A stretch of 64,000 nt of DNA from Kiritimatiellia bacterium (GTDB taxonomy: Bacteria > Verrucomicrobiota > Kiritimatiellia > RZYC01), in assembly GCA_028708815.1 (NCBI GenBank), contig JAQVYB010000002.1, positions 1,495-65,494 of the forward strand, given 5' to 3'. The notes under the pieces are model-generated. The model was given only the letters and a program-made list of their open reading frames with translations, made no database searches and had not been told where the DNA came from. A program made the translations under genes and the position numbers. Within the stretch, counting starts at the first letter, position 1, and each line of letters begins with the position of its first letter. Of the stretch, positions 17,080 to 54,158 are shown piece after piece.

Positions 17080-17097
17080 GTATTATTTAAAAGGAGC

Positions 17098-32634: not shown

Positions 32635-32659
32635 TTGGTCTTTTGCTGCTGCTGTTTTA

Positions 32660-35600: not shown

Positions 35601-38600
35601 GTCCAGTCACTTCCCGTCAGCATAATGTTATCATCATTGCCAATGCGCGAAGCGCGAAGCGCGCCATTCTCCACATTCCAGTTGGCGCAACCCGCCGCAC
35701 GCACCCAGCCGTCCGCATTGCCATCACTGAAGGTATCCGAGAACAGGCCGGGAACCGTCACGTTATCGAACGAGATATCCAGCTTGTTTCCCGGCTCATA
35801 ACCCATTGTTTCCAGCCAGTCAGCCACCGCATTCACCGTATCAAAATGACCGGGATAGGCCTGTTCCGTTTTCGATGAACGGAAAATGGCAATACGGGCC
35901 GGATAGGCATCCGCACGGGCCAGCGGTGTTGCTTCCCAGGGCAGATACTCATACAGATCTTCCCACTCGATATCGATCTGTACGCTGTCGCCTTTATCCA
36001 TCGTCTCCGGCAGTTCGCCCGTCGGGCGAACGCCCCACGTCAACTGAACGGCCTGTGGCACCGCTTCTTCTACCCGATTACTCGAAGCATCTTCCAGCCA
36101 GGCTGTGAACTCATACGCCCCGCCATCCACCGTGGAGATATAGTCCGAATCATTCAGATCCGCATTGGGAATCCAGATTTCAAACACATGCGTGCCACTG
36201 CCGGAAACGGCCGCCGTCAATTGCTGATAGATTTCATTGGGCTGGCTGTCGCCATTGTCACCCTTTTCATTGAAGGCCAGATTCAGCGTTAGGTCAGCCC
36301 GGGCCAGGCAGTCATATCGCACGATGACCTGATACACCTTGTCGCCAAACGGATGCACCAGCGCCGGAGCATCTTCAATCTGCACAATCTGACTCACCGT
36401 ATTCGTATCAAATACATGCAGGATTTCCATGCCGTCCGGAACCAGCGTCAACTCAGTCGTACCATCGCTGTTTTCTTCCAGTATTTTACCCGCTTCAAAG
36501 GCCTGGATTGTTTTACCGGCAAACAGATCGCTCTGAATGGTAAAGGTCTGCGAATCACCGCCCCCCGCATTGGTAAAGCTTGCGGGGAAATTGGTGTCCC
36601 ACATATAGTTTTTCACCTGCCACAGAGTAGAGTCATCCACCAACGTTCTGTATTCGACCATCGCCAGGTGGGAGTTGGATCCCTGAATTTCCAGCTGTGG
36701 CGCCACATCGAAGTAATTCTTCACCAGTGACTCAAAGATGTCGTAGCGCCATTTCCACGGAAGCACATCCATCTCGCGATCTTCATTGCCGTCCGGTTCA
36801 ACATCACCCACCCCATAGAGGAAAATGGCGGCTTTCCCTTTGCCGGCGCCATGATCTTTCACCACTACAGCCGGAGAGCGTGTCTTGCCATCCACATATA
36901 ATGATCCGCCCGGCGATGTGTTCCGAATGAAGATATCATCAGCCATGAAGCGTCCATCACCACTGGTGTGATCATTACAGCGAACCACAATGCGTGCCTT
37001 CGTCGCAGTCGTGGGCACGGTCGCCGTTCCTTCTGAATTGATCCAGGTGTTTTGCGGAGAGTTTGTGCTGATTGTTGGCGATGCCGCAATCGTCGAAAGC
37101 CTGGTTTCCCCATTATAGAATTCCAGTTCGACCGTGCCATATTTTGTACCGTCGCGTAACGGATCTGCCGTGTTCTCCATGGAGATCGTGGCCGAATCCC
37201 AATAGGTATCGAGATTATAATTTGTCCCGGCCGCGGCCACCATCACCAGACGCGCAAAGGCTGTGTTGGCCGGAGCCGTTCCGGATGCGGATAACACATG
37301 CCACGTATCCTGCCCGGAAGCGGCTGTAATTATCGCAGACGTGACCGCGCCCCCCAGATCAGAACCACCAGAGTTCTTCCACTCAAGGATAAGGTATGCC
37401 TGATCACCGTTCTGCATAGGATTTCCGGCCAGGCTCCAGTCATACATTTTCGCCTCAGCAGTATATTCATCTCCTTCTGCCGCATTGACGTCCTGATACA
37501 GGGTCATCTTCTGGTTCGGCCAGCCCTGGAAAATCTTGGCCGCCTTTGTACCATCATCCGCAAAATTATGGTTCTCACACCATGCGTTGCCATTGCCTGA
37601 TTTGGTCCAGAACGACGGCGGTGTCGTGCCGCTGCTATCTGCTTCAAAGCTGACATTCGATAGCGCCGGTGATTCCGCCGACCCGCCCGGCGTAAAGAAA
37701 TGCCCGCCGAAGACCAGCTGATCTCCACTGATGATGCTGTCCGTAACATCCTGATAAATACCGCCATCCCACCAGAAGGCCCAGGCGTTGTTCCCGGAAC
37801 GATAGTATTCGGTATCCGGATCATGCGAATCATTGTTCCATCCGGCCCAGCCGGTCGGTGCATCGCCCGACCCATCCAGTTCGCCATTCGACACCAGGTT
37901 CGGATGATGACTTGCATTAAATGCATACAGGTCATCCGCAAAGAACGTGCCATCGCCGGCCGAATAATCATTACACCGAACCAGCACACGGGTATTTACG
38001 GCATTCACAGGAACGATGAAATCACCCTCCGACAAAATCCATACCCCTTTGGCACTGTCTTTTGATATCGTTGGTGATGCGGAAACAGACGAAATCAGAT
38101 TGTTGGCGTCGTCACTGAATTCCACCTGAATCACACCATGTTTCGACCCATCGCGCAGCGGATCACCACTACTCGGATTCTGAAGCGTCAGGCTTACACT
38201 GTCCCAGTAAACCTGCACGTTGTTATTCGCCCCCGCAGCCAGTGCGAGTACCATTCTGGCAGATGCCGTATCGGCCGGTGCAGCCCCCGTCACAGAAAGC
38301 AGATGCCAACTGTCCTGCCCGGAGGCCGACGTGATTACGGATGACGTCACCGAGCCCGCCAGCAAAGAGCCCCCGGAATCGCGCCATTCAATAACGGTGT
38401 AGGCCTTATCACCACTCTCCATGGGGTTCCCCGACAAACTCCAATCATACACGTTGGCCGATGCAATAAATTCATCCCCTTCAGAAGCACCAAGTTCCTG
38501 ATAAAGCACCTGCGTATAATTGGCGTAGCCCTGATAGATTTTTGCTACTTTCGTTCCCGCGTCGGCAAACCCCTGAACTTCGCACCAGACGCTTCCGTTT

Positions 38601-41320
38601 CCTGCTTTTGTCCAGCCGGTCGGAGGAGAAACTCCGCTGCTGTCATCTTCAAAACCTGCGTTGGACAAGTCGGACGCAGCGCTGCCGCCGGCCTCCGTGT
38701 ATAACCAGCCACCAACCCGAAGCACATCACCTGCGGAAAAACCACTGTCAATGTCCTGATAAATGCCTCCATCCCACCAGAATTTCCAGGCATCGTTGCC
38801 CGAGTGCGTGATAGAGGTTTCCGGGTCATGCGAATCACTGTTCCAGTCCGACCACCCCGTCGGCGCGCTGCCGGTACCTGCCAACGTACCATTTGAAAGC
38901 AGGTTTGTGGATGCCGTCGCGACACGCGTAATCCGCCGCGCCGTCCAGGGTTGCCGCTCGGAGCGCTGGGCTCCGCCACCCGCAGGAGCAAGCCCATCCG
39001 CCGTGTATTTAACCCACGAATCATTCGGCGTGCTGCCGGTCAGCGGCTCGCTGTTTACCGTCGACATCAGCACATCCTCTTCATCCCGAAATTCAAGTTG
39101 AACCACGCCATATGCCCCGCCGCGTAACGGATCATCCGCGTTGCTGCGTAAATACTGGCTGTGCGAATAGCGTCCGTAGGGCACCACATCCCATTGATTC
39201 CAGAGACCCGCCTCACCCCACATCTGCACCATATTGCTGCCTTCATACACGCTGTCCCAGCCGGAGCGCACATGCGTCTCACCCCACTTGCCCCAGCCAT
39301 CGGCATTGGTATTGCAGGTTTCAAACCCCTTGTTGCGATGTGTATCCATGGTCGCCCACAGGGTGCCATCCGTCACTTCGATTTCATCACTGTACTTCCA
39401 GGTATAGGGCCTGTAGCTGTAATTCCCGTCCAAAGGACTGGCCGCACTTGCCGTAAACTGAACATCAACCGGCGTCCAGTACCACGAAATATATTCCTGT
39501 CGCCTGTTCGGAAATTCGTAGCCGCCGATATCACTTGCATCAATACCGAACAGGTCATCCAGCTTTTCTGCAAAATCCGCATATTCTTTCCCATGCTGAT
39601 CCTGCAAGCCGGGCAGATCTGCCGTAGCAATCACATTCACTCCCGCAGGAATGACGTTACTGACAATGAAATCGATCACCCCCATACCTGAATTCGGCAC
39701 TTCGTTTTCAACACGCATATTACGGGGAAGAATAAGCACGCTGTAGTTCGTATAAACATGGTTCGCCAAATCATCGAGATTCATGAAGTTGGGCTCATAT
39801 CCCAGTCGCTCCAGGGCGCCGGCAATCTGCTGCATTTCACATTCGTAGCGATTATATTGCGAATCATTCGCGGCCGTCCACAGAAAGGCAATATCGGGTT
39901 TAGGATCTTCAGATCCCATCAACAAATCCTGAATATCCACCTGATCCATCAGCGTAAACGTATTGCGGTTTTCCCAGAATGCCGGTTTAATGCGCCGATC
40001 CGCATAGAGAATACCAAAGCCTTTTTCACGCTCGGTGATATATGGACGATCCATCCACGAAAAGATATGCGTTCCGATCGCGCCGGCTTCAAGACTTTCC
40101 CACAGCGCGTTGTCAATCAACTGGCCCTGCCGATGGATGTCCATATGCGGCCACATCGTCTCCGAACTCGAAAACCCGGTCTCGGAATAGAGTACCGGCA
40201 CGCCGTTCGGTTGAGCCCCCGACCGCGTGGCGAATTTGGTGAACGAGATGCCCCACTGGCCGTTTTGCGATTCATGCCCCAGAATCGACCACGGATAATT
40301 ATTCACAGAAAAGAAATCAATCGGGGCCCCGACTTCCGCTGCTTTCTGCGTAATTTTGCCTCGGTCTTCCGCATGATAACGCCAGTCTTCTTCGCCCCAC
40401 TGCATGCCTACGGTCGAATAAGAAATCAAGTGATTGGTATCAGCGGCTTTGGACGCCGCAGCACTGGCCGCCGTAAACCCGGCAATCGAATCTTCACGGA
40501 ACTGAACCATATCCGCCCACTGTGCTCCCGGCGGACCATAAGCACGGTACTGCTCAATAAAAACAATATCTTCAAAGCTGCTGTACGAAGACCCCCACGT
40601 CGCATTCACCTGTTCGATGGTCGAATATTCATTGGAACACCACACGCGGAAAGCCTGCTCGGTTTCGTCATCATATCCATCCGGCAAACCACTCCACAAC
40701 CCAAGATAGCCATACTCATTGCCTACGACCCAGCCCACAATGGCTTTATTGGTACTGTAGCGCGAACACACCTGATAAATCCAGTTGGAATACTGTGCAC
40801 GTGCCTCAGGATGTTCATAGTTGATAATGTCCGACTGCCAGCGGTTGGTGTGTTCAATTCCTTCTGAATCCAGCTCCGGCGGATGCTTTGTATACCATTC
40901 ATCCGGAAACCAGTTCGGCGGCCACTGATAGCCCACCAAGGCAAAAATACGAATGTTGCGTTCTTCACACGCCTTCACAAAATAATCATAATTGTCCCAG
41001 CTGAAGATATCATCCCCCAACTCCTCTGCATGCTGCCAGACAATGTCAATGCGAACACTGTTCGCGCCCATCTTCACCATCTCGTCCAGATCGTAGTCAA
41101 CCTGCTCGAAGGTCTGCCAAACGCCCAGGGGGCGATTCCACGTCTGATACGCGATACCATGGGGAACCCAGGCCTCGCCTGTGGTCCGGTCGAAAAAATA
41201 GCCGTTCGTTATGCCAATGAATCCCTCAAAGGCCTGTCCCACTACCGTGAAAAGCAGCAGAAACAGAAGGACTAAACTTGAAATGACTAATGAACCACCC
41301 GCGGAATGACCTGAACGCAT
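32660..41320 (-). CDS. giant (2886 aa) surface protein: GH-A clan (GH42-like) glycosidase + CBM-like modules + LamG/DUF1080-like domains
   Basis: ATG 41320 with AAGGAGG SD and signal/anchor LVISSLVLLFLLLFTVVG. (beta/alpha)8 motifs MVKMGANSVRIDIVW and VGWVVGNEYG. Repeated CBM-like units follow. Two DUF1080/LamG-like segments (FSDGNADGWV...NWNVENGALRA; FDDGNYTGWTV...SWSVTDGALRA). Confidence 0.7.
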   Translation of the reverse strand: MRSGHSAGGSLVISSLVLLFLLLFTVVGQAFEGFIGITNGYFFDRTTGEAWVPHGIAYQTWNRPLGVWQTFEQVDYDLDEMVKMGANSVRIDIVWQHAEELGDDIFSWDNYDYFVKACEERNIRIFALVGYQWPPNWFPDEWYTKHPPELDSEGIEHTNRWQSDIINYEHPEARAQYSNWIYQVCSRYSTNKAIVGWVVGNEYGYLGLWSGLPDGYDDETEQAFRVWCSNEYSTIEQVNATWGSSYSSFEDIVFIEQYRAYGPPGAQWADMVQFREDSIAGFTAASAAASKAADTNHLISYSTVGMQWGEEDWRYHAEDRGKITQKAAEVGAPIDFFSVNNYPWSILGHESQNGQWGISFTKFATRSGAQPNGVPVLYSETGFSSSETMWPHMDIHRQGQLIDNALWESLEAGAIGTHIFSWMDRPYITEREKGFGILYADRRIKPAFWENRNTFTLMDQVDIQDLLMGSEDPKPDIAFLWTAANDSQYNRYECEMQQIAGALERLGYEPNFMNLDDLANHVYTNYSVLILPRNMRVENEVPNSGMGVIDFIVSNVIPAGVNVIATADLPGLQDQHGKEYADFAEKLDDLFGIDASDIGGYEFPNRRQEYISWYWTPVDVQFTASAASPLDGNYSYRPYTWKYSDEIEVTDGTLWATMDTHRNKGFETCNTNADGWGKWGETHVRSGWDSVYEGSNMVQMWGEAGLWNQWDVVPYGRYSHSQYLRSNADDPLRGGAYGVVQLEFRDEEDVLMSTVNSEPLTGSTPNDSWVKYTADGLAPAGGGAQRSERQPWTARRITRVATASTNLLSNGTLAGTGSAPTGWSDWNSDSHDPETSITHSGNDAWKFWWDGGIYQDIDSGFSAGDVLRVGGWLYTEAGGSAASDLSNAGFEDDSSGVSPPTGWTKAGNGSVWCEVQGFADAGTKVAKIYQGYANYTQVLYQELGASEGDEFIASANVYDWSLSGNPMESGDKAYTVIEWRDSGGSLLAGSVTSSVITSASGQDSWHLLSVTGAAPADTASARMVLALAAGANNNVQVYWDSVSLTLQNPSSGDPLRDGSKHGVIQVEFSDDANNLISSVSASPTISKDSAKGVWILSEGDFIVPVNAVNTRVLVRCNDYSAGDGTFFADDLYAFNASHHPNLVSNGELDGSGDAPTGWAGWNNDSHDPDTEYYRSGNNAWAFWWDGGIYQDVTDSIISGDQLVFGGHFFTPGGSAESPALSNVSFEADSSGTTPPSFWTKSGNGNAWCENHNFADDGTKAAKIFQGWPNQKMTLYQDVNAAEGDEYTAEAKMYDWSLAGNPMQNGDQAYLILEWKNSGGSDLGGAVTSAIITAASGQDTWHVLSASGTAPANTAFARLVMVAAAGTNYNLDTYWDSATISMENTADPLRDGTKYGTVELEFYNGETRLSTIAASPTISTNSPQNTWINSEGTATVPTTATKARIVVRCNDHTSGDGRFMADDIFIRNTSPGGSLYVDGKTRSPAVVVKDHGAGKGKAAIFLYGVGDVEPDGNEDREMDVLPWKWRYDIFESLVKNYFDVAPQLEIQGSNSHLAMVEYRTLVDDSTLWQVKNYMWDTNFPASFTNAGGGDSQTFTIQSDLFAGKTIQAFEAGKILEENSDGTTELTLVPDGMEILHVFDTNTVSQIVQIEDAPALVHPFGDKVYQVIVRYDCLARADLTLNLAFNEKGDNGDSQPNEIYQQLTAAVSGSGTHVFEIWIPNADLNDSDYISTVDGGAYEFTAWLEDASSNRVEEAVPQAVQLTWGVRPTGELPETMDKGDSVQIDIEWEDLYEYLPWEATPLARADAYPARIAIFRSSKTEQAYPGHFDTVNAVADWLETMGYEPGNKLDISFDNVTVPGLFSDTFSDGNADGWVRAAGCANWNVENGALRASRIGNDDNIMLTGSDWTNYSVRVDITYNEQGHYLNDAEVYLRYVDRNNFVKVGIENFFGFWRLKRTVRIDADNAETSWLFDFQKTNSPVEDVTYNLRVDATGGVFDVYFNGAYVNTFVDTTFSAGKIGVGTKATQLGIWEPRKGYYFIDDDEYSYYGGIDTTVTEASPLNLDYGYLVGFFPTLMLPGTYVMSDVEVSNVVTWIDSGLNSLIVLDGGVACENELGVSDMGRIEELLGVAASVTVVSNLTSATVGDDGHYATLDYDTGDTISISGNAFAYNSLLSSAVDVLTLDNGTVAVPGLILNQRADHPDSPSKVIVFNFDAASGGQLTNTFSMPAQRAFEWARGEAYQVTLELKYDTQSTNAFDFVILKTTGWLLTGSGTNTLMVDIPENNIMTGDNLYWVMYVHPWDSTDPWRDHGGFYTSEDEAGAPLYTSLSGVGLQVLGITDVAYAGRDWDKWIAYNTRTQELVLAYGLKDKGVIDIQDHFDDGNYTGWTVSPNANISWSVTDGALRASVSGAGGESYITRNGLALNNTNITFEYDVLFENGAASGGIIYRGVKLDLNPTRCGWVDDDPNYTNNPLTTGVWYHVVVNLRDGNPYMRSDVRVGNELVFVTEDIEVTNFNSNTIGLIAPTMTGYAAWDNIRVVDEEYAVVWSTVNGVSFPTNDVPTGTWPTVPDYDPNMIEHGGANEGCQYEWFIHFKGKDGVYARQDVNIYFSPRLMVESSNFPTRMARGETVTVPVEWEGLGTGSAGKLKLSLEDPYLGTNAARGTFDITNATGTAEFELTIDAGAAAGKNYNWLAYFYPTTATNPMLQRIGLDDTFCFQPVEMGAPIAPETTIEVTSIVDGDFVVYSDAGIPADSDLFTWSGGGGTWDSEFTIWPAAEGVETFYTLNFLSYIGWGIFDTGGVDLSAYTNGYLKFSLFALDTMKVEIEDMDGHKGTANVGPTSIYWTHYSIPMTNFPAVDFSRIKGMFMITSYDAAEYIVDQIRWSNTAD
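36920..38908 (-). repeat. internal tandem duplication of a ~336-aa three-module unit in the giant protein
   Basis: Unit 1 starts at TNLLSNGTLAGTGSAPTGWSDWNSDSHDP (about 38908). Unit 2 starts at PNLVSNGELDGSGDAPTGWAGWNNDSHDP (about 37900). Both end with ...RCND(Y/H).(A/S)GDG.F.ADD. Confidence 0.75.
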
Positions 41321-41371
41321 GACCAGCCTCCTTCTTTCTTTTACACACACCACCCTTCAGACAGTACTAGT

Positions 41372-44236: not shown

Positions 44237-46417
44237 TCAGCTTGTGGGAATCGGTGCAAACAGGATTTTTTCGTAGGCAGCGAGAAATCGTTCGGCCATG
44301 TGGGTATGCGTAAACTCGCTCAACACGCGTTCGCGTCCGGCGCGGCCCATATGCCCGCGTTCGGCGTCGTCGGTCATGAGTCGGTTCAGGGCGTTTAGCA
44401 GGGCGGGTGCATCGCCGGGGGGCGTGAGGAGTCCGTCGATGCCGTCGCGCACCACTTCCGGCACGCCGCCGGTGACGCAGCCGACCACGGCCTTGCCGTA
44501 CTGCATGGCTTCGAGATAAATCAATCCGAACGATTCAAAAAGGGATGGCGCGACAAAAAGATCGCACTGTTGGTAGGCCCGGTGCATTTCCTCTTCCGTG
44601 CATACCCCTTTGAATGTCACGCGCGCAGCCAGATGGGGAGGACAGGTTTTCTGAAAACGGTCTTTAAAGGGCTGGCCATCGGTGTCGGGGATGGTGTCGT
44701 TGCCAATGAGTATGCACTGCCAGTCCGGATGCTTTTCGAGGAGGTCCGGGAGAATTTCCAGCAGCACATGAATGCCTTTGCGACGTTCGCAGCGGCCGAC
44801 GAACAGCAGCGTTTTGAACGGGCCGGATTTTATGGGCTCCGTCATTTGGCGGGGGACAATGCCCAGCGGAACGATGGCCACTTCCGCGAGGCGTTCTTCC
44901 GGGATGTTCATGAGGGTTCGATAGCTCTCCAGCACGCCGCGCGTAGGGGCGCACAGTTGGGCCGCGTGAAGAACCTGCCAATGGTCGGTGGCAATGCATG
45001 CGCGTTTTTCATCGTCGTAGTTCCATTGCATTTCCACCACATCGGCGGCCAGCGAGGTGACGAGGGTGAGAGATACGGGAGTTTTTCCGGCCTGGATAAC
45101 GGCCAGCGCTTCCGCGTTCCAGTTGGTGGCGTGGATGATGTCGAAAGAGATTCCAGCGAGGGCGAGGCGGTCCAGTCGATGCTGAATCGCGAGGCCGTAG
45201 CAGAGGTTGTGATTCAATTCGGGATGACTGCTCATCGGATTCCAGCGTCCGATTTCCTCTTCGGAAATACCATGAATGAAAAAGTCCAGTGACTCATGAT
45301 GGAGCGGACGTGTATCCCGGCAGAGAATGTGCACCTCATGGCCCAGATGATGCAGGCCTTTCGCCAGATCAAAGGTATAGCGTCCGATGCCGCCGCAACC
45401 GGGGTGCGATGGAATGTCGGTGGTCAGCAGGGCGATACACCGTTTTGCGGCGGGGTTCGGATTCGCAGCCATTTTAAAGGACATTGGAGCCGGGTCGAAT
45501 GTGGTGGTTCGTCGTCGGGTGAAGAGCCCGAGATAGAGCCCTGCGAGCAATCCTTGCATCCAGTGCCGGCGCAGGGCCAAACGCTCCGCGAAGCTCAGCA
45601 ATCCTCGTTTCGTATAATCGCGTATGATGCGGCAGTAATATTTATTCGGGGCGAAGCGCAGGGTGTTGAATAGGCGAAGAGGAAGGAGGTCGTCGCTGTT
45701 TTTCAGTGAAAAACAGGTATCGCTTCGCGTGATGGTCGCCCACTTGTCCGGCGGAAGGCCCATCTTGAATTGGGTGCGTGTGGGATAATGCCGCACGGGA
45801 TTCTCCATCAGAAACCGGTACGTGAAACCGGCCTGATGCAATCGGAAGAAAACGTCCGTCTCATCCAGCCAGAAGCGGAAGCGTTCGTCGTAACCGCCGA
45901 TGGCGGCGAGGGCGCTTCGTCGGAACGCGCAGTTGCAGCCCTGTCCGCGTTCGATCCAGGGCCTGCCATCGGGGGATGGCGCGTTGGCATCCAGCGAGTC
46001 GAAGCGCTGGAAAGCGTAGGCGGTGGTGGCGCCGCCGGTATATTCATAGTCGTTGGAATCGTAGGCCAGCACCGATCCGGCGGCGCCTCCGAGTTGCGGG
46101 TCCGACTCAAACGCATCCACATATCGCTTTAACCAGAGCCCGCTGCCGGGAACCGCATCATCATCAATAAAGACCAGGACATCGCCCGATGCGGCCGCAA
46201 TCCCGATATTGCGGGAGACGGAAAGATTCATGACGGGGCAGTGCGCTACTTTGATTTGGGCAGCATACTGATCCAATACGCTCAATGAGTCATCGGTGGA
46301 TGGTCCGTTAACCACCACGATTTCCATTTCCACATCCACCAGATGCAAGAGTCCCGGCAGGAGCCGTTTCAGATGCTCCGCGCGGTTGCAGGTGTTAATG
46401 ATGATCGAACTTTTCAT
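44237..46417 (-). CDS. bifunctional GT2 (N-terminal) / GT1 (C-terminal) glycosyltransferase
   Basis: GT2: SSIIINTCNRAEHL...IVVVNGPSTDDS...FIDDDAVP. GT1: LLFVGRCERRKGIHVLL...FVAPSLFESFGLIYLEAMQYGKAVVG. ATG 46417 is preferred over 46429, which lies inside the palindrome. Confidence 0.85.
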   Translation of the reverse strand: MKSSIIINTCNRAEHLKRLLPGLLHLVDVEMEIVVVNGPSTDDSLSVLDQYAAQIKVAHCPVMNLSVSRNIGIAAASGDVLVFIDDDAVPGSGLWLKRYVDAFESDPQLGGAAGSVLAYDSNDYEYTGGATTAYAFQRFDSLDANAPSPDGRPWIERGQGCNCAFRRSALAAIGGYDERFRFWLDETDVFFRLHQAGFTYRFLMENPVRHYPTRTQFKMGLPPDKWATITRSDTCFSLKNSDDLLPLRLFNTLRFAPNKYYCRIIRDYTKRGLLSFAERLALRRHWMQGLLAGLYLGLFTRRRTTTFDPAPMSFKMAANPNPAAKRCIALLTTDIPSHPGCGGIGRYTFDLAKGLHHLGHEVHILCRDTRPLHHESLDFFIHGISEEEIGRWNPMSSHPELNHNLCYGLAIQHRLDRLALAGISFDIIHATNWNAEALAVIQAGKTPVSLTLVTSLAADVVEMQWNYDDEKRACIATDHWQVLHAAQLCAPTRGVLESYRTLMNIPEERLAEVAIVPLGIVPRQMTEPIKSGPFKTLLFVGRCERRKGIHVLLEILPDLLEKHPDWQCILIGNDTIPDTDGQPFKDRFQKTCPPHLAARVTFKGVCTEEEMHRAYQQCDLFVAPSLFESFGLIYLEAMQYGKAVVGCVTGGVPEVVRDGIDGLLTPPGDAPALLNALNRLMTDDAERGHMGRAGRERVLSEFTHTHMAERFLAAYEKILFAPIPTS

Positions 46418-46449
46418 TTTTCCAATCATTGGAAGGGTCCTCAGGACCC
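46369..46449. repeat. 81-bp segment (GT gene 5' end + two palindromes), copy A
   Basis: 75/81 identical to 47181-47261 by manual alignment. Confidence 0.85.
46420..46449. promoter_or_regulatory. adjacent palindromes TTCCAATCATTGGAA + GGGTCCTCAGGACCC at the GT2-GT1 gene start
   Basis: Both are perfect 7+1+7 inverted repeats: 46420-46434 and 46435-46449. Confidence 0.6.
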
Positions 46450-46450
46450 C

Positions 46451-47179
46451 TTACTGGCCCGTACAACGGTTTGCATAACAAAACTTCATCACCTTCGCAA
46501 TTTCTTCCAGCGAATAGCCTTCCCAGGCGAATCCCGCCAGGTGGATTAAAAAATCTCTGGAGGGAAACCGGCAAAGATTATACGGATCTGCGGGGTCCAG
46601 GTAACTGTTGAATAGGTTGTGTTCCATGATGACCCGGGTATGTTTTCGTACGTTCTTATCCGATTCATACAGGTGAATAAACGCTTTGTTTTCCCACCAG
46701 GGGTGATCAATGAATTCCGTCTGGGCATACAGGCGATCCATGAACTCGAACGACCATGAGCAGCGTTTTACGAAGAAATTTCCCATATTCAGATTATTTT
46801 TAGCATCCCGCGTAAGCATAAATGATTTATGGCCCATGTGTTCTCTGATCAAATCGTGCAGCTTGATGGCGCCGTTGATGATGACCACGTCCGCATCACT
46901 GAAAAACACATAATCGTAGTTCGGCAGGTACTTCTTGATTAACTGGATTTTGGACCAGGATGGCGGGCGTCCAGTGTCGAGGATCTCTTCCCCGCCGATG
47001 AATAAATCATACCCATGATGGCGGCAATATTCCTCCTTGCTGCGAAGGCCGGGCGCCATGGCATCCCGATAGAAATTACCTGTGCATAGCGTTAGCATGG
47101 CGATGCGGGGAGGATGTCGGAAGGGTGCGCATCCGGAAAACGTATTTTTCAGATATTGGATTACAGTCCGAAAGGACAT
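46451..47179 (-). CDS. GT34/GMA12-like nucleotide-sugar transferase (putative)
   Basis: IAMLTLCTGNFY...YCRHHGYDL...SWSKIQLIKKYLPNYDYVFFSDADVVI resembles the galactosyl/mannosyl transferase (DUF273/GT34) pattern. AT-richer codon usage than its neighbours. Confidence 0.5.
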   Translation of the reverse strand: MSFRTVIQYLKNTFSGCAPFRHPPRIAMLTLCTGNFYRDAMAPGLRSKEEYCRHHGYDLFIGGEEILDTGRPPSWSKIQLIKKYLPNYDYVFFSDADVVIINGAIKLHDLIREHMGHKSFMLTRDAKNNLNMGNFFVKRCSWSFEFMDRLYAQTEFIDHPWWENKAFIHLYESDKNVRKHTRVIMEHNLFNSYLDPADPYNLCRFPSRDFLIHLAGFAWEGYSLEEIAKVMKFCYANRCTGQ

Positions 47180-47180
47180 A

Positions 47181-47261
47181 TCAGATGCTCCGCACGGTTG
47201 CCGGTGTTAATGATGACCGAACGTTTCATTTTTCCAATCATTGGAAGGTTTCTCAGGACCC
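47181..47261. repeat. 81-bp segment, copy B (pseudo 5' end of a GT gene plus palindromes)
   Basis: Encodes MKRSVIINTGNRAEHL, against MKSSIIINTCNRAEHL in copy A. It then runs out of frame into the GT34-like gene. Confidence 0.85.
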
Positions 47262-47288
47262 CCTTTCCATTTTTTCCAATCATTGGAA
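47232..47288. promoter_or_regulatory. two further copies of TTCCAATCATTGGAA (47232-47246, 47274-47288)
   Basis: Exact matches. The second contains the TGA stop of the methyltransferase gene. Confidence 0.6.
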
Positions 47289-48050
47289 ACTTCTGCCTGT
47301 TACAATAGTGTTCCACGTTATCGGTTGAAGCATGCGCGGGGCGTGTTTTTCCAGGATACGATCCATGCCGCAACAAAGGGCGCTGAGTGGATTCATGAGC
47401 CAATGCGGTTTTAGTATGATTTCTGCAAATGGCGTTGAAAACAGGCCCTGTGGATATGCGGCTATGTCGGAAAATTCCGCCTTCTGGAAATAATCATGCA
47501 GCTGGATGGCACTTAATTCCTGCTGTTCACACGAGTAGGAGGAGTCGACTTTCGTTCTCAATTTTCGAAGATGGCTGAAAAGGGGATTGGCGGGCTGTGG
47601 TTCGTTGACCACAAGAGATCCCCCCGGCTTGAGCAGCTGTTTGGCTGTTTTCAGAGCGCGAGGAATGTCGTTCATGTGGTGCAGGACGCCGATCATCAGG
47701 ATGAGGTCATAGCGGGTTTCCGTGTTGAACTCATAGAAATTAACGGATTGGAAAAGGGCATTCGGTGTCGCATTCAACTGCTTGGCATGCTCAATCAGAT
47801 CAGCGGAATAATCGATGCCGGTATACGTTCTGCATGAATTCTGAAGATAACGTGCGGAAAACCCTGCGCCGCAGCCGACTTCCAGAATATCTGTGTCCGC
47901 ATTTGTTCGCGCGTACCGAATTGACTGCATCAATCGCAATGCACGGGCTCTTCTGGATGGGCCCCACTGATCCTTTCGAATATAGCTGTTGGCGATGCGA
48001 TCAAACAATTCCATATCCCTTTTTGATCGAGTTGTCTGATCATCATCCAT
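47280..48050 (-). CDS. class I SAM-dependent methyltransferase
   Basis: ILEVGCGAGFSARYL (motif I)...DLILMIGVLHHMND...LKPGGSLVV. Confidence 0.85.
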   Translation of the reverse strand: MDDDQTTRSKRDMELFDRIANSYIRKDQWGPSRRARALRLMQSIRYARTNADTDILEVGCGAGFSARYLQNSCRTYTGIDYSADLIEHAKQLNATPNALFQSVNFYEFNTETRYDLILMIGVLHHMNDIPRALKTAKQLLKPGGSLVVNEPQPANPLFSHLRKLRTKVDSSYSCEQQELSAIQLHDYFQKAEFSDIAAYPQGLFSTPFAEIILKPHWLMNPLSALCCGMDRILEKHAPRMLQPITWNTIVTGRSFQ

Positions 48051-48480
48051 GAGCCCCCCTCCCGTGCGGTTTGAATACGAAAAAACGGTAAGTCAGAAAC
48101 TTGACTGCATAAAAAGAACAGAGCGAGATGAACACCGCCAGCAGATACCAGAGACCGAGGTACGTGTAGAGCAGGGTAAAGGTCAGATATTCTCCGATGC
48201 GAAAGCACAGCGATGTAGCCAGAAAACGGGTAAGCTGTTTTCCTATGGTCATTTGGGCAGAAGAAAATACCCAGAAACGGGCCAAAAGAAAATTCATCAC
48301 ATAAGCGATGGCCAGTACCAGGGCAAAAGAAAACCGGGGATCCAGATGGAGAAATTCGTGCAGAAAAAAGGTTCCTCCGAAATTCAGGCACATGGATAGG
48401 AGTGTCAGGACCATGAATCGTGCGGCCGCTCCGCTATGCTGCCGAACGAACAGAATAATGCGTTGTTGAAAGGGTGTCAT
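48043..48480 (-). CDS. GtrA-family membrane protein
   Basis: 145 aa with four TM segments. The RFMVLTLLSMCLNFGGTFFL...FLLARFWVF pattern is typical of GtrA. Overlaps the downstream gene by 8 nt. Confidence 0.8.
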   Translation of the reverse strand: MTPFQQRIILFVRQHSGAAARFMVLTLLSMCLNFGGTFFLHEFLHLDPRFSFALVLAIAYVMNFLLARFWVFSSAQMTIGKQLTRFLATSLCFRIGEYLTFTLLYTYLGLWYLLAVFISLCSFYAVKFLTYRFFVFKPHGRGAHG

Positions 48481-48522
48481 GGTTGTGTGGCGCTTAAAAA
48501 GTTGCGTTGCCGAAGAATGGGG

Positions 48523-49389
48523 TTATCTCAACCGTTTATCAATCATATCCGCCAGCAGGGAAAACATGGTGATCATGGCGGTGAACATAAAGAGAAAGAC
48601 GGTCTTATCGGTCAGATTATTGAGGATCAAGACATCGTAAGCCAAGCATAGGAGAAAGACGAGGAAGGTGGTCGAGGCGATGGGCATAAAAACTCGCATA
48701 GGGGAAAAATAGACGCCAATGCGGAAGATCAGTTTAAAAAAATTCAAGGTGTCGCGTATGGGACGGATTTTTGAATGGCCGACCCGGGTAGCGTAGTTAA
48801 TCGGCACGTAGCGGACATCGTAGTGATTGGTCAGCATGGCCAAGGTGATGGTGGTGGTAAAGCTGAAGCCGTCCGGAAACAGGTGAAAGAATTTCTCCGC
48901 GATTTCGCGGCGAAAAACGCGCATGCCGGAGTTGATGTCCGGGATTTTCCGTCCGGCAATCCAGGAGGCGTAAGCGGTGATAAAGAGTTTCGGGATTTTC
49001 TTTATCAGCGGGTATGTCACATCGTCGCCAGTGCGTGCGCCCACCACCATATCCACATCGTGAGCCTGCCCGATCAATGTTTCCAACTGATCGATGGGAT
49101 AGGTTCCGTCGGCATCGACAATGGCAATCCATTCGGAGTGACTGCGGCGAATACCCGTTTTCAGAGCGGACCCGTATCCACCGTTTCGCTCGTGGTGAAC
49201 GACCCGCATGTTCTTGTGGCCGGCGGTCATTTTCTCCAGGAGGTCTCCGGTTTGGTCGCTGGAACCATCGTTGATAAAGACAAACTCCAGGTCGTCTGGT
49301 TTTGACAGGCGGGTTCTGAACAGGTTGATCGTTTTTTCGATGGATTCCTGTTCGTTGTAGCAGGGAACGATTACAGTGCAAGCGGGCAT
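48523..49389 (-). CDS. GT2 polyprenyl-phosphate glycosyltransferase (DPM1/GtrB/ArnC-like)
   Basis: TVIVPCYNEQESI...FINDGSSDQT...HERNGGYGSALKTG...IVDADGTYP plus two C-terminal TM helices. Start uncertain: ATG 49389, ATG 49422 or TTG 49446. Confidence 0.8.
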   Translation of the reverse strand: MPACTVIVPCYNEQESIEKTINLFRTRLSKPDDLEFVFINDGSSDQTGDLLEKMTAGHKNMRVVHHERNGGYGSALKTGIRRSHSEWIAIVDADGTYPIDQLETLIGQAHDVDMVVGARTGDDVTYPLIKKIPKLFITAYASWIAGRKIPDINSGMRVFRREIAEKFFHLFPDGFSFTTTITLAMLTNHYDVRYVPINYATRVGHSKIRPIRDTLNFFKLIFRIGVYFSPMRVFMPIASTTFLVFLLCLAYDVLILNNLTDKTVFLFMFTAMITMFSLLADMIDKRLR

Positions 49390-49512
49390 GGTCAGAAAGG
49401 ATCCTTTTTCATTTGTTTTCATGTGGTGGAATACGTTACGAAACAAGAAACTATCACACTTTTATAAAATGGGAAGTCGTCATCGCGATTAACTGCTAAT
49501 TCAAGGAATGGA

Positions 49513-51705
49513 ATGGAAAAAAGGAGCAATGTATTCAACCGGCCCGTCGAGAAACAAAAGTGTGATGGGTTCCTCTTCTTTACTTTGTATAGCCTGGCCT
49601 CCGTGGCGGTTTGTATCTTCCAATATTGCATCCCGTCATCGCTATTTGGGGGGAATGGCCTCATTCCAGTGGTTATAAGCCTCTGGATTCTATCGTTTTT
49701 CATCGCCAGACGATATGATCCAAGGGAAATGCGTCTGATTTTTCGCATGCTTCCGGGTGGTTGGGCCGGGCTGTGCCTGATTTCGGGATTCTATTTCTTT
49801 TATACAATACCCATTCCTCCTCTACCCGTGGTTTCGAGTGTAAAAGTCGAAACCACGAACCGCCAAAACGACCAGTCAGAAAGTAATGAGGCGTGGATCA
49901 CCGGAATATTCCTCCCATCCGGGGCGCGGGTCGTACCCCCTGAATCATTCACAGCCGTTAACGGACGATGGCTATGGACCAACGAGGCTGTCTGTTCCCC
50001 CTGCCAACAGGAAGCTATCCTGGAGTGGAATGGGTATGCTCCGAAAGAGGCCGCATTGCAGATCATAAAGAGTCCCTGGTCGGGGATTGTCAACGTGACG
50101 CTTGACGGACGAACAGAGACGATGGATCTTTATGCGGAACGTAACTGTATGGTGGATATTCCGCTCACCAGTGGGGAAACACCATTCACGCTACTGAGTG
50201 TTGTCTATCTGATTGCTCATGCTGTGATGCTAGGTGGTGCGTTGTTTTACTTCACCGCATGGTTGATTCTCCGCCCTTCCGTTTTGATGGAGAAACGAGA
50301 GACGTCTGCATGGTGGGTGATTGCTTTTTCAGCGCCCGCTCTTTGCTGCTGGACCTGGTTGCTGGTACAGTTTTGGCCGGGCCTCATGACCAACGACTCC
50401 TTTGATCAGTGGGGCCAGATGCTGTCGGGAAAGTATGTGGACCACCATCCCGTCGTTCATACGTTGTCGAATTGGCTATGCACCCGCATATGGCTGAGTC
50501 CGGCCAGTGTGGCCGTTGCACAGATTGTCGGACTGTCCTTGGCGGCAGGAATTTTCCTTTACCGACAAGTCTGCTGGGGGCTTCCCCGCACAGCGGCCGT
50601 AATCATAGGAATCCTTTTCGCCCTGTTTCCCGTTAACGGGTTTATGGCCATCACGCTCTGGAAAGATGTGGCTTACACCATCTGTATGCTTCTTTTCGCC
50701 GTTTGTATGTTCGAAATCGCCGCGAGCAGGGGGGCGTGGTTACGCAGGAGGTCGGCCTGGTTCTTTTTGGGGCTTGTGGCGGCGTTGTGTTCCCTGTTCC
50801 GTCACAATGGCCTTCCCGTGGTTACCGGTACCTATATTTTGCTGCTTATTCTTGCGTTTCGATACTGGAAGTCGATCACGGCCTCTTTGATTCTGTGCAT
50901 GCTGCTTGTTGCTGCCGTAAAAGGGCCCCTATATTCAGCTCTTCATGTAGACAGCAACGTGGCTATTAAACATGCAAAACTTACCAACATCTGTCTGCCT
51001 TTCGTCATGGCTCATGTCATGCAGGGAGCTGAATTGACGCCGGAACAGAAAGAGGTGCTTCGGGATATTTATCCCGGGGAATGGAGGATTCCCTATTCTG
51101 AACGGACCCTACGTCAGATCTATTTCGCGCCGGAATTTTCACGAGATAAATTATATGGAACGCGCAGCCAGGATATAAACCGGCTTGCCTTTGAGTTATT
51201 CAAAGAAGATCCATGGATTGATGTGGAGCACTTCCTCTATGGAACGGAATATATCTGGTCCATTCAGCAACAGAAAAACAACCGCTATGAGATGGTTTCT
51301 TTCTGGTTGTCGAATGGCCAGGTAAACTATTCCACGTTAAACCATGATTCTGTATGTCGATTTCCTGTTGAGCCCCTGAGAATCAAAAAGGAGATGCCTA
51401 TTGTACGCCGACTGCTGGAATTCACGGCACGGAACAGTTGGTTTGCCTGTCGAACAGCGATTTATCTTTATCTGATTCTGTTTCTGTCGTTATGCGCAGC
51501 CTTGCGCAGCCGTAGCGTGTTGTGGTTGTTTCTGGCGGTACCGGTGGTGTTGCATACCGGGCTTCTGCTTTTGGCGATCTCATTCGCCAGCAATTTCCGC
51601 TATCAATATCCTGTCATGGTGATCGGATTGCTGGTTGTTCCTTTCCTGGCGTTTCTCGTGCCGAAGGCGGAAGTTCCGCCATGCGTACAGAAGCAGGATT
51701 TGTAA
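49513..51705 (+). CDS. large polytopic membrane protein, possible GT-C-type glycosyltransferase/polymerase
   Basis: 730 aa with more than 10 predicted TM segments and an extracytoplasmic insert. A WPGLMTNDSFDQW loop motif follows a TM helix. The family assignment is tentative. Confidence 0.45.
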   Translation: MEKRSNVFNRPVEKQKCDGFLFFTLYSLASVAVCIFQYCIPSSLFGGNGLIPVVISLWILSFFIARRYDPREMRLIFRMLPGGWAGLCLISGFYFFYTIPIPPLPVVSSVKVETTNRQNDQSESNEAWITGIFLPSGARVVPPESFTAVNGRWLWTNEAVCSPCQQEAILEWNGYAPKEAALQIIKSPWSGIVNVTLDGRTETMDLYAERNCMVDIPLTSGETPFTLLSVVYLIAHAVMLGGALFYFTAWLILRPSVLMEKRETSAWWVIAFSAPALCCWTWLLVQFWPGLMTNDSFDQWGQMLSGKYVDHHPVVHTLSNWLCTRIWLSPASVAVAQIVGLSLAAGIFLYRQVCWGLPRTAAVIIGILFALFPVNGFMAITLWKDVAYTICMLLFAVCMFEIAASRGAWLRRRSAWFFLGLVAALCSLFRHNGLPVVTGTYILLLILAFRYWKSITASLILCMLLVAAVKGPLYSALHVDSNVAIKHAKLTNICLPFVMAHVMQGAELTPEQKEVLRDIYPGEWRIPYSERTLRQIYFAPEFSRDKLYGTRSQDINRLAFELFKEDPWIDVEHFLYGTEYIWSIQQQKNNRYEMVSFWLSNGQVNYSTLNHDSVCRFPVEPLRIKKEMPIVRRLLEFTARNSWFACRTAIYLYLILFLSLCAALRSRSVLWLFLAVPVVLHTGLLLLAISFASNFRYQYPVMVIGLLVVPFLAFLVPKAEVPPCVQKQDL

Positions 51706-51920: not shown

Positions 51921-54158
51921 TTATGTCCATAATGCCTGCCGGATGGTCTCGCAGGAATTCCCGTGCGTTGCGATGGTATCCCGATAGTATTGTGCGTAAC
52001 GATCAGCCATCGCGAGATAATTCAATTCGCGGTAAACGCGTTCCTGACCGCGCAGGCCCATGTTTCTGCGGAGGGTTTCATCGTCCATCAGGCGCTGGAG
52101 TGCGGCCCGTAATTCCGTCACGTTCCCGGGTTCGATAAGGATTCCAGAAACCCCGTCATCCACCACTTCCGGAATACCGCCGGTCCGGCAACCAATTACC
52201 GGCTTGCCGAATTGCATGGCTTCCAGATAAATCAACCCGAATGATTCATACAAAGAGGGTGCTGCAAAAAGGGCACATTCGCGGTAGAGGCGTTGCAGCT
52301 CTTCCTCGGCGACAAACCCATGAAAGTGCACGCGGGAAATCCAGGAGCTGGTGCCGTATTTTTCCAGAAATTCGTCTTTGTAGGCTCTGTCCCGTTCGTT
52401 GGGGATTTGGTCATTGCCCACAATGTCGCATGTCCATTGCGGATGAGATTCCAGAAGGTTTGGCAGCACCTCCAGGAGCGTATGGATGCCCTTGCGCCGT
52501 TCGCAGCGTCCGACGAAAAGGATGTTCTTTTGTTTTTCACCCGGGGTTGCGGGGCGGGGATCTACGGGTACAATCCCCAGGGGAAGAGGGGCGGTACGCC
52601 CGCATACTTCGTCAGGAATGCCCATGAGAGAACGGTAGCTGTCCATTACGCCGGATGAAGGAGAGCACAGGGCATGAGCGTGTGTGATTTGCCAGTGATC
52701 CAGCGCAATCGAAAGGCGCATGTCGCTGTTCCAATCCCATTGCTGTTCAATCACATCCTGGGCAAGCGAGGTAACCAGCAGGAGAATCACCGGATATGCT
52801 CCGCTGCGCAGAACGGCTACCCCCTCAGCATCCCAGTTATTCCCATGAATGACATCGAACACCAACCCCTGTTCGGAGAGTTTTTGCATGCGATGATAGA
52901 CGGCTGTGCTGTAGGCTGTGTTTTTGTTAAGTACGGGAAGATTGGGAAAGGTTGATGGCGCATTGCTGTATTCCTCCTTCGTAATCCCGTGTGCTTCCAG
53001 ACCCAGCCGCAAATAACGGCGTGGTTCGTTGTCTTTGTAAAAGAGATGTACTTCGTGGCCGAGTTCATGAAGGCCAAGGGCCAGATCATACATGTACCGC
53101 CCGATCCCTCCGTAATCTTTATTGATGGGGAGTGTTTGGGAGAGTAATGCAATTCGGAGTGGACTGTTTATGCGGTCGGCTCCAGTTGCGGTGAACGGAA
53201 GAAATGGAGGAGGCGGAGAGAACGTCTGTGTTTTTCTTTTCCAGAAAATCCCGGCAAGACAACCAGCTGCCACGCCGAAATACCAATGACTCAGAATGGA
53301 ATAATAGGTCATTCGAGAGAATGACTTCTTTTTAAAACCTGACTTAATTTCCGGATAGAAATGCTTCTTCTTAGCGTAGTGGAGCGTGCGCGCAAGCCGC
53401 CTCCAGAAGGCCCCTGTTGCGTTCTTCATGGCAAAATAGGTATCGCTTCGCGTGATGACAAAATACTTTTTCGCGAGTGCCTGATTGGATCCGAACACAC
53501 GTTGGGGATAGTGGCGGATTGGATTGTATTCCAAGTGCGTGATTCTGTCTCCGTTCCTAAAGAAGCGCAAACAGACATCGGTTTCATCAGCATAATATTT
53601 GTAGAATTCATCGAACCCGCCAAGAGCGATGAGCTTTTCTCTGTGATAAGCGCAGTTTCCACCGGGCACCCGCAGCACCCATTCCTCCTGATCCGGAGAA
53701 GGGGAGCGCTTCTGTGAACAATCAAAGTGTTGAAACCCGTAACATGTTGTTAACCCACCATTGTATTCCGTCCATTCAGAGTCCCCAACCAGCACTTTCC
53801 CGCCAACAGCGGCAAGATGGTCATCCTTTTCAAAGGCATCCACAAAACGTTTCAACCAGGATGAATCACCAGGTAGTGCATCATCATCAAGAAAGGCCAC
53901 CAGATCGCCTGCCGCTTGGGCTATGCCGATATTTCTGGAAACGGAAAGATTACAGACAGGGCACCCAACATGTTTTATCCGTCCCTTGTACTCCGCCAGC
54001 ACGGATTCCGTGTCATCGCTGGAGGGCCCGTTCACCACGACAACCTCAAACACCGCGCCGTCCAGGTGGTCCAGACTGGGCAGAAGATTGCGCAGGTACT
54101 TCGCCCGGTTGTAGGTGTTAATGATTACGGAGCAGGTGAGTGTTTTTTTTTCAGGCAT
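51921..54158 (-). CDS. bifunctional GT2 / GT1 glycosyltransferase (paralogue of 44237-46417)
   Basis: CSVIINTYNRAKYL...VVVVNGPSSDDT...FLDDDALP, then ILFVGRCERRKGIHTLL...FAAPSLYESFGLIYLEAMQFGKPVIG. Confidence 0.85.
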   Translation of the reverse strand: MPEKKTLTCSVIINTYNRAKYLRNLLPSLDHLDGAVFEVVVVNGPSSDDTESVLAEYKGRIKHVGCPVCNLSVSRNIGIAQAAGDLVAFLDDDALPGDSSWLKRFVDAFEKDDHLAAVGGKVLVGDSEWTEYNGGLTTCYGFQHFDCSQKRSPSPDQEEWVLRVPGGNCAYHREKLIALGGFDEFYKYYADETDVCLRFFRNGDRITHLEYNPIRHYPQRVFGSNQALAKKYFVITRSDTYFAMKNATGAFWRRLARTLHYAKKKHFYPEIKSGFKKKSFSRMTYYSILSHWYFGVAAGCLAGIFWKRKTQTFSPPPPFLPFTATGADRINSPLRIALLSQTLPINKDYGGIGRYMYDLALGLHELGHEVHLFYKDNEPRRYLRLGLEAHGITKEEYSNAPSTFPNLPVLNKNTAYSTAVYHRMQKLSEQGLVFDVIHGNNWDAEGVAVLRSGAYPVILLLVTSLAQDVIEQQWDWNSDMRLSIALDHWQITHAHALCSPSSGVMDSYRSLMGIPDEVCGRTAPLPLGIVPVDPRPATPGEKQKNILFVGRCERRKGIHTLLEVLPNLLESHPQWTCDIVGNDQIPNERDRAYKDEFLEKYGTSSWISRVHFHGFVAEEELQRLYRECALFAAPSLYESFGLIYLEAMQFGKPVIGCRTGGIPEVVDDGVSGILIEPGNVTELRAALQRLMDDETLRRNMGLRGQERVYRELNYLAMADRYAQYYRDTIATHGNSCETIRQALWT

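Follow-up and report, generated by a model that had tools for sequence, protein, structure and literature searches.

A palindromic repeat in helically phased arrays at gene boundaries of Kiritimatiellia genomes, and its duplication in a glycan synthesis locus

Several types of short, recurring palindromes are known in bacterial genomes. Repetitive extragenic palindromes (REPs) are imperfect palindromes of 20–40 nucleotides (nt) whose conserved head is asymmetric; their orientation alternates within bacterial interspersed mosaic elements (BIMEs), each is confined to one species or genus, and RAYT transposases are linked to them. CRISPR arrays have repeats of 23–47 nt and unique spacers of similar length, the arrays are long, and cas genes are found nearby. 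The Bacillus subtilis consensus boxes of Fur (TGATAATnATTATCA), PerR (TTATAATnATTATAA) and Zur (TCGTAATnATTACGA) are 15-bp inverted repeats of the 7-1-7 form. Lrp-type regulators bind clusters of 13–15-bp palindromes that are two or three helical turns apart, centre to centre, on one helical face, and the DNA wraps the oligomer (PMC2995911). The element described here, termed P1, is a 15-base palindrome found in a 64,000-nt stretch of DNA from a Kiritimatiellia bacterium (contig JAQVYB010000002.1 of assembly GCA_028708815.1, positions 1,495–65,494); this whole stretch is referred to as the window, and positions refer to it unless another locus is named. Kiritimatiellia degrade sulfated polysaccharides and are abundant in marine, gut and sediment environments. 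To our knowledge, essentially nothing is known of how they control gene expression.

P1 (TTCCAATCATTGGAA) is present in the window in six exact copies, three in a glycan synthesis locus at 46.4–47.3 kb and three in the spacer between a topoisomerase gene (topB) and a peptidase gene at 61.3 kb (Table 1). Two further copies in the topB spacer, the third and fourth of that array, have a form with one mismatch, TTCCAATCGTTGGAA. With two or fewer mismatches allowed, 16 strand-matches to P1 are counted where 0.15 are expected, and none of 100 shuffles matched this count. The pattern TTCCAA-N3-TTGGAA does not occur in the window beyond the copies listed. A preliminary description of this sequence had placed exact copies at the same three positions in the glycan locus and considered eight occurrences in 64 kb to be beyond chance. 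The repeats are real, and their number is not explained by chance; copies 1 and 2 lie in the arms of an 82-nt direct repeat and are therefore not independent, and the five copies at 61.3 kb form one tandem array.

A single-site scan with TTCCAATNATTGGAA over 596 Gb, with one genome per species, gave at least 119 loci. Among the matches listed, 30 of the 119 loci carry arrays, and 28 of these 30 are in metagenome-assembled genomes (MAGs) labelled Kiritimatiellae, Kiritimatiellales, Pontiellaceae, Pontiella, Verrucomicrobiota, “Spartobacteria” or Lentisphaerae, or unlabelled (“uncultured bacterium”). The G+C content of the 28 array-bearing MAGs ranges from 0.51 to 0.69; the same 15-mer is found in rumen MAGs at 68–70% G+C and under the labels Pontiellaceae, Kiritimatiellales and Kiritimatiellae. 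Bacteroidota, Firmicutes, archaea and other groups display single matches only among those listed; this is the chance level, about 2,000 matches being expected by chance in 596 Gb. A two-copy pattern has 30 specified bases and is essentially impossible by chance; it was found at 120 or more metagenome loci (at least 120). The family consensus across Kiritimatiellia MAGs is tTTCCAAT-S-ATTGGAAa.

Two occurrences outside this group should be mentioned. A phage origin or use of P1 was considered and rejected: the single-site scan of viral contigs gave isolated single sites among the matches listed, and the two-copy pattern was found in one contig, a Mu-like element (L240) with a transposase match (phrog_310). 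In this element three copies at 31 nt are present at 3429–3505, in an apparent early regulatory region beside small helix-turn-helix-like open reading frames. Secondly, a different repeat, GGGCTTCC(A/C)ATCATTGGAAGGT(C/T)AAGA, in an Aurantiacibacter genome and a Pseudobdellovibrionaceae MAG (L060 positions 6071 and 6137; L040 position 2395) contains this 15-mer too, through coincidence or convergence; it is distinct from the Kiritimatiellia element.

Literature searches on the motif string, and on promoter, repeat or motif work in Kiritimatiellia, found nothing relevant. The P1 family is apparently undescribed: a short perfect dyad in direct arrays of helical period, at every type of gene boundary, throughout a class. 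Its components are of known kinds, i.e. interspersed extragenic palindromes and phased operator clusters; the combination was not found described.

About 1 Mb of motif-selected loci contain 230 clusters of P1. Cluster sizes are 1 (51 clusters), 2 (61), 3 (43), 4 (46), 5 (17) and 6 (12), six being the maximum. The sequence logo is symmetric and extends to 17–19 bp, with G or C as the central base in 98% of copies. Most variation falls on the three central bases and on arm positions 6 and 10. What is conserved in the arms is their sequence and not only the ability to pair: 558 copies have exact arms, 33 of the 52 in-phase copies with one arm mismatch have a change that breaks a pair, and only one of the six double variants is compensatory. 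A single copy of P1 folds at only −3.3 kcal/mol. The strongly negative folding z-scores of whole arrays were set aside as uninformative, since repeated palindromes are self-complementary and the scores show no more than this. P1 has no polarity with respect to transcription: C is at the centre of 138 copies and G of 125, and the flanks are symmetric.

The spacing of the copies follows the helical repeat of DNA. In loci fetched by a single site, and therefore free of spacing bias, 85 of 89 spacings are within 1.5 nt of a multiple of 10.5 (21–23, 29–33, 42, 52 and 63–65), where about 33% would be expected. In a larger set the centre-to-centre spacings are 22 (82 pairs), 30 (51), 31 (212), 32 (43) and 42 (6). 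Thus spacings of 22, 30–32 and 42 bp are 2, 3 and 4 helical turns. The spacer length is constant, though spacer identity between loci is only 0.47, compared with 0.33 for shuffled spacers.

Known element types were searched for at these sites. Rfam 15 gave best matches of 24–27 bits on the array, against gathering scores of 72–170, and a known RNA family was rejected. No sigma-70 promoter or terminator consensus was found in a scan of the palindromes at 46–48.5 kb. In the array at 61.3 kb, the sole intrinsic terminator match of the scan pairs half a palindrome with spacer sequence, and there is no T-tract polarity. A CRISPR array was also rejected, as the repeat core is 15–19 nt, the spacers are 7 or 16 nt, there are six units or fewer, and the many loci are situated between ordinary genes.

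Of the described systems, the sites of Lrp/AsnC regulators are similar in architecture. P1 arrays consist of two to six palindromic sites with main spacings of 22 and 30–32 bp, and are thus clustered in the manner of Lrp sites. Natural Lrp sites are however degenerate and situated in control regions, whereas P1 is near-perfect, class-wide, and also found after stop codons and between convergent genes. The similarity extends to architecture only, and no Lrp homologue is encoded among the 837 proteins of the loci themselves. The boxes of the Fur family have the same 7-1-7 form as P1, an AATnATT core, and T1 and A15; P1 differs from them only at positions 2–4 and 12–14. On the other hand, the neighbours of P1 are not metal-homeostasis genes, its centre is restricted to G or C, and the loci contain no Fur homologue. 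We know of no Fur proteins with arrays of 31-bp period or sites at 3′ ends. With the REPs and BIMEs of Enterobacteria and Pseudomonads, P1 shares an extragenic location at many unrelated loci, occurrence singly or in clusters, often at gene 3′ ends or between genes of an operon, and a variable copy number. It differs in being a symmetric 15–19-bp dyad in direct arrays at 22 or 30–32 nt, with no asymmetric flank, conserved across a class, and with no linked transposase seen among the array neighbours.

Two examples will be used to show the conservation of P1 arrays at orthologous positions. The array at 61.3 kb is a tandem repeat of 4.6 units (85% matching) that separates the divergent TopoIII and peptidase genes. 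The only other contig with the same TopoIII is identical to the window. In a relative with a 93% identical TopoIII (L242) an array is found at the same place, consisting of one copy beside the peptidase gene, an insertion of about 170–180 nt, and then three copies at 31 nt. A relative with an 81% identical TopoIII (L243) shows at least two copies at this place before the contig ends. In all three genomes the palindromes have been kept and the spacers have diverged. A block at about 61250–61306, between the array and the topB ATG, is conserved in the three genomes as well and reads, on the topB strand, CTATTCTGTTCTTCCATAA ... GTGTATAAC ... TACACCAG. This block is probably the topB promoter or operator and unrelated to the palindrome; the array would then be situated roughly 70 nt or more upstream of the topB promoter. 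The peptidase start is more likely GTG 61515, 36 nt after the last palindrome, than TTG 61473 inside that palindrome. The TTG is a doubtful start because it is in frame only in the window and out of frame in L242.

It should be noted that the insertion which splits the array of L242 (positions ~1169–1355) consists of several GC-rich hairpins. Possible identities are a miniature mobile element and a small structured RNA.

The second example is the region upstream of a gene for a fusion of GT2 and GT4 glycosyltransferases (GT2-GT4) in the glycan locus. On the minus strand the gene order is methyltransferase, GT34 glycosyltransferase, GT2-GT4. The closest GT2-GT4 homologue from another genome (P0122, locus L365; 69% identity) is found both on a 43.7-kb MAG contig from NCBI and, independently, on a Logan contig. 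Upstream of its ATG are three palindromes with a 31-nt period, a GC-rich element (GGGTCCCCGGGAAC), and a fourth palindrome, 42 nt from the third and with its end 5 nt from the ATG; the N-terminus of the protein reads MRASIIINTCNRAEHLKRL. The last pair, at 5939 and 5981 of L365, has a 42-bp spacing around the GC-rich element, as do copies 2 and 3 of the window. The L365 sequence aligns column for column with copy 3, a GC-rich palindrome termed P2′, copy 2, and the ATG of the window. P2′ is an imperfect version of P2, a palindrome that abuts copy 1, and L365 has a diverged GC-rich counterpart of P2 at the same place; where P2 and P2′ differ, at two positions, L365 agrees with each at one. From this alignment and the same 42-nt spacing, the palindrome pair that encloses P2 directly upstream of the GT2-GT4 gene is ancestral and conserved. 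The palindrome count at GT2-GT4 is two in the window, compared with four in L365.

The explanation to which we give about even confidence is that P1 sites are phased binding sites of a conserved dimeric, oligomerising DNA-binding protein. Six properties together suggest that duplex DNA is recognised by a dimeric protein and that its dimers bind cooperatively along one helical face: the dyad is perfect across a class of diverse G+C content, sequence is conserved over pairing, the hairpin is weak, the sites are symmetric with respect to transcription, arrays occur in divergent spacers, and spacings are fixed at 2, 3 or 4 turns despite unrelated spacer sequences. Arrays are kept at orthologous positions both in the topB spacer (93% and 81% TopoIII identity) and in the GT2-GT4 module (69%). 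From these properties we infer protein binding, cooperativity and an effect on expression, as follows. Each palindrome would be bound by one dimer of a conserved sequence-specific protein, and dimers on sites 2, 3 or 4 turns apart would share a single DNA face, with cooperative binding. The bound dimers would probably wrap or stiffen the spacer, and the protein may be a global regulator or a nucleoid-associated protein. Where a site adjoins a start codon or a short leader, e.g. at GT2-GT4, it would hinder access of RNA polymerase or the ribosome and act negatively when occupied. Upstream of a core promoter (topB), or just past stop codons, arrays would have an architectural or roadblock role.

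A further proposal, offered tentatively, is that the arrays are loading sites for a Kiritimatiellia-specific nucleoid-associated or insulator-type protein, with two to six dimers on one DNA face at gene boundaries of every orientation. If true, transcription units, and perhaps supercoiling domains, would be partitioned throughout the genome by boundaries or roadblocks that are specified by a perfectly conserved 15–19-bp dyad; no equivalent has been described in bacterial chromatin. The class-wide phased dyad also provides an experimental handle, as an array can be used as bait for the binding protein.

The genomic context of the arrays was analyzed as well. Clusters with more than one copy are almost all intergenic (11 of 178 are called coding). 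Of 91 arrays with robust flanking genes, 53 are in tandem, 18 in divergent and 20 in convergent spacers, compared with 292, 74 and 100 among all 466 gene pairs. Arrays therefore show no preference for promoter-containing spacers. About 40% of the tandem arrays end 42 nt or less from a credible start codon, with a Shine-Dalgarno sequence between. Genes downstream of arrays encode AIR synthase (purM), MreC, CysS, a MiaB-like protein, TrmD, alpha-L-fucosidase, a GxGYxYP hydrolase, a cytidylyltransferase, a HIT protein and an MFS transporter. The neighbours, which also include TopoIII, DnaJ and MurJ, are functionally unrelated, and no dominant protein family emerged when 278 of the neighbouring proteins were clustered.

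Several of these observations weigh against phased binding sites of a DNA-binding protein. Convergent spacers hold 20 of the 91 arrays, which is about the background rate (100 of 466). Two convergent cases were validated by Pfam on both sides: Wzy_C and MurJ genes converge on three copies in a spacer of 118 nt that is nearly all array, and DnaJ and alpha/beta hydrolase genes converge on three copies. In tandem spacers the median distance of an array is 27 nt from the upstream stop and 85 nt from the downstream start. Such proximity to stop codons is unusual for the operator of a transcription factor, and REP-like 3′ elements typically show it. Tandem duplication of a unit accounts for part of the regular period inside an array, so that the independent spacing classes number only about three (22, 31 and 42). 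A linked gene for a binding protein or a transposase was looked for and rejected: all-against-all clustering of the 837 locus-encoded proteins gave nothing, there is no recurrent gene family, transposase, RAYT or DNA-binding regulator among the 278 neighbouring proteins, and phmmer searches with E. coli Lrp, Fur, CRP, IHF and HU gave no homologue among the 837, which are proteins of the loci only. In addition, the genes of the loci were called by a home-made program from the codon usage of these same loci, and Pfam checks covered only a sample of the calls.

Two side observations concern gene content and gene calling at array-bearing loci. One array-bearing relative (L244, positions 2917–3765) has a 282-aa gene with a faint Pfam match to Y1_Tnp (IS200/RAYT type), which is not flanked by a palindrome. 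Some database gene calls run through arrays (L242 1–1482, L244 12061–13260 and L244 20593–21570), and their starts have probably been called too far upstream; arrays create spurious in-frame ATG and TTG codons. P1 arrays can be used to flag Kiritimatiellia contigs in metagenomes, and they warn of mis-called gene starts.

The main rival is a REP/BIME-like extragenic repeat, or a role at the RNA level. In the REP/BIME-like case P1 would be a selfish or structural palindrome spreading through intergenic DNA. Any activity would be exerted through the transcript, where P1 would stabilise the mRNA 3′ end, terminate transcription weakly or in both directions, or serve as an intercistronic element, or else through single-stranded hairpins that a transposase-like enzyme recognises. 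The spacer distribution and the position close to stop codons are nearer to REP/BIME elements than to a regulon, as is the clustering beside unrelated genes. One Pontiellaceae copy (L067) is located between a stop codon and a canonical terminator, and the average flanks are A-rich upstream and T-rich downstream. Copy number varies in close relatives, with five copies compared with one plus three at topB and two compared with four at GT2-GT4. We nevertheless consider this explanation doubtful. REPs are lineage-specific, whereas the same 15-mer is present across a class at G+C contents of 0.51–0.69, in arrays that remain at orthologous positions down to 69% protein identity. Compensatory variation is absent, a hairpin of −3.3 kcal/mol is weak, and no terminator consensus falls on the palindromes. 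There is also no polarity with respect to transcription, the spacings are quantised at helical multiples between unrelated spacers, and the 278 neighbouring proteins include no recurrent transposase or RAYT.

A second rival is a target in RNA, i.e. the transcribed palindrome forms a hairpin for an RNA-binding protein or nuclease and controls translation or processing in 5′ or 3′ untranslated regions. Conservation of sequence without covariation fits such sequence-specific recognition, and where sites abut start codons the GGAA arm could be a weak ribosome-binding site masked by the TTCC arm. Spacing by helical turns has however no rationale in RNA. Both orientations are equally frequent, though the central base would differ in the RNA, and arrays are found upstream of the conserved promoter-like block of topB. 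This explanation is improbable.

Distinctly improbable is a core promoter element, in which the palindrome, or a pair of them, would serve a lineage-specific sigma factor with very short leaders (TTGGAA as −35 and TCCAAT 17 nt later as −10). Many copies end 2–45 nt upstream of credible starts with a Shine-Dalgarno sequence between, the 31-nt period does place TTGGAA and the next TCCAAT 17 nt apart, and the site before the GT2-GT4 start is kept in the orthologue. Against it, arrays fill convergent spacers without a gene start, as in the 118 nt between Wzy_C and MurJ, and the motif is present in only about 3 of some 40 spacers of the window. A promoter has no need of a perfect dyad, and the palindrome lacks a TAnnnT −10 box. 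Spacings of 22 and 42 nt give no −35/−10 geometry, and there is no orientation bias toward genes.

Highly improbable is the proposal of the preliminary description, a dedicated transcription factor that co-regulates surface-glycan genes and the peptidase/topB region through a P1 operator: all copies of the window are at glycan-gene edges or in the peptidase/topB spacer, and a palindrome suits a dimeric regulator, but the three glycan copies represent one ancestral pair and a duplication within a cluster of about 15 kb, the other ten or so genes of that cluster have no site, and sites in relatives are beside purM, mreC, cysS, miaB-like, trmD, dnaJ, murJ, fucosidase, MFS and HIT genes and in convergent spacers. 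In the regulon of a transcription factor, sites are found in promoter or 5′ regions and targets are functionally related; P1 arrays show neither property. That description had itself named membership in a repetitive extragenic family at unrelated sites as evidence against co-regulation, and P1 belongs to such a family: its neighbours across Kiritimatiellia genomes are unrelated, and arrays are no less common at convergent 3′ ends than in spacers with a promoter. What stands is a non-chance motif for which a shared trans-acting factor is still the best reading.

The positions of the palindromes, the repeat arms and the adjacent genes in the window are collected in Table 1.

Table 1. P1 and P2 palindromes, the 82-nt direct repeat and the genes beside them in the 64-kb window.
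Feature	Position	Strand	Remarks
GT2-GT4 fusion glycosyltransferase gene	44237–46417	−	Pfam Glycos_transf_2 and Glyco_transf_4/Glycos_transf_1; downstream of P1 copy 1
82-nt repeat arm A	46369–46450	−	P2, P1 copy 1, and ATG and first 17 codons of GT2-GT4
P1 copy 1	46420–46434		TTCCAATCATTGGAA; ends 2 nt upstream of likely GT2-GT4 ATG (46415–46417, minus strand)
P2, perfect GC-rich 7-1-7 palindrome	46435–46449		GGGTCCTCAGGACCC; between GT34 stop (46451–46453) and P1 copy 1
GT34-family glycosyltransferase gene	46451–47179	−	Pfam Glyco_transf_34, E-value 1.9e-22
82-nt repeat arm B	47181–47262	−	P2′, P1 copy 2, and 5′ remnant of GT2 gene
P1 copy 2	47232–47246		Proximal of ancestral pair; aligns with 4th palindrome of L365
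P2′, imperfect P2	47247–47261		GGTTTCTCAGGACCC on plus strand
P1 copy 3	47274–47288		Distal of ancestral pair; its centre is 42 bp from that of copy 2
Class I S-adenosylmethionine-dependent methyltransferase gene	47280–48050	−	Final two codons and stop in P1 copy 3
Type IA DNA topoisomerase gene (TopoIII-like, topB)	59098–61233	−	Pfam Topoisom_bac, E-value 1.4e-112; ATG 106 nt from nearest palindrome
Tandem array, five P1 copies, 31-nt period	61339–61482		Copies at 61340, 61371, 61402, 61433 and 61464; third and fourth with TCG at centre
Secreted papain-family (C1) peptidase open reading frame	61473–63998	+	Pfam Peptidase_C1; runs off the window

The two repeat arms in the glycan locus are identical at 76 of 82 nt in an alignment of both regions. 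Copy 1 with P2 and copy 2 with P2′ are the arms of this repeat and are therefore one duplicated feature, not two independent ones. The GT34 gene is flanked by the repeat, and for this reason it is probably a cassette inserted into the 5′ end of the GT2-GT4 gene. It is also situated in a stretch of lower G+C content (0.47–0.48) than the adjacent GT2-GT4 gene (0.54–0.59). A remnant open reading frame of 22 codons, at 47161–47229 on the minus strand, reads MKRSVIINTGNRAEHLICPFGL* and overlaps the GT34 ATG at 47177–47179. By comparison with L365, copy 1 and P2 of the window arose through the duplication that accompanies the GT34 cassette. The 46.4–47.3 kb region thus holds one ancestral two-site module, with a 42-bp spacing that encloses the GC-rich P2, and a copy made by the 82-bp duplication at the GT34 insertion. 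The pattern of P1 at three gene boundaries is then a record of gene-cassette insertion and not a regulatory code for glycan genes.

Two gene ends in this locus lie in or beside P1. The methyltransferase reading frame terminates in ...FQ*, encoded by TTC CAA TGA of copy 3, so that its stop is within the palindrome, in agreement with the preliminary description. The same description placed copy 1 over the first ATG of the GT2-GT4 gene. The first in-frame ATG (46427–46429) does fall in copy 1; the likely start codon is however the ATG at 46415–46417, 2 nt past the palindrome, because a protein that begins there has its GT2 domain from residue 4 and the start of the orthologue aligns there.

The GC-rich palindrome P2 does abut copy 1, and a degenerate version abuts copy 2, as had been reported. 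As a second family motif paired with P1 it was rejected. No exact copy of P2 is present beyond its own site in the 64-kb window, none is found in 364 loci, and a search of about 1.06 Mb of motif-bearing loci for the relaxed hairpin GGGTCC...GGACCC found none close to another P1. P2 is thus local to one locus.

Other features of the glycan locus were noted. Translation of GT34 may be coupled to the 22-codon remnant. A relative of the GT2-GT4 protein, P0123 (L367 6001–9006), is a triple fusion of 1001 aa with 61% identity to it, and also has GT34 and DUF273 domains, which are apparently C-terminal. From this fusion, the GT34 module would appear to shuffle around the GT2-GT4 glycosyltransferase family. 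A split fusion gene as the origin of GT34 and GT2-GT4 was rejected, as the GT34 domain of P0123 is apparently C-terminal and not N-terminal. The G+C content is 0.46–0.53 over positions 46500–51500, compared with 0.56–0.64 in the flanks; this segment spans the methyltransferase, GtrA, GT2 and DUF6020 genes of the glycan cluster and is compatible with a horizontally exchanged island of the serotype type. A second GT2-GT4 fusion paralogue is found at 51921–54158.

Two other regions of the window are of note. A flagellar region (953–12483 and 15466–18069) has five flagellin paralogues, at 953–1996, 2000–2962, 5928–6890, 7255–8232 and 8566–9543, together with FliW, FliS, an MptE-like protein possibly involved in flagellin glycosylation, rod proteins and FlgA, and no palindrome is present at any of these genes. 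The region 25859–41353 has two large open reading frames, 32660–41353 (2897 aa) and 28942–32712 (1256 aa, no Pfam match), beside HlyD-like and outer-membrane efflux genes, and may be a type I secretion adhesin locus.

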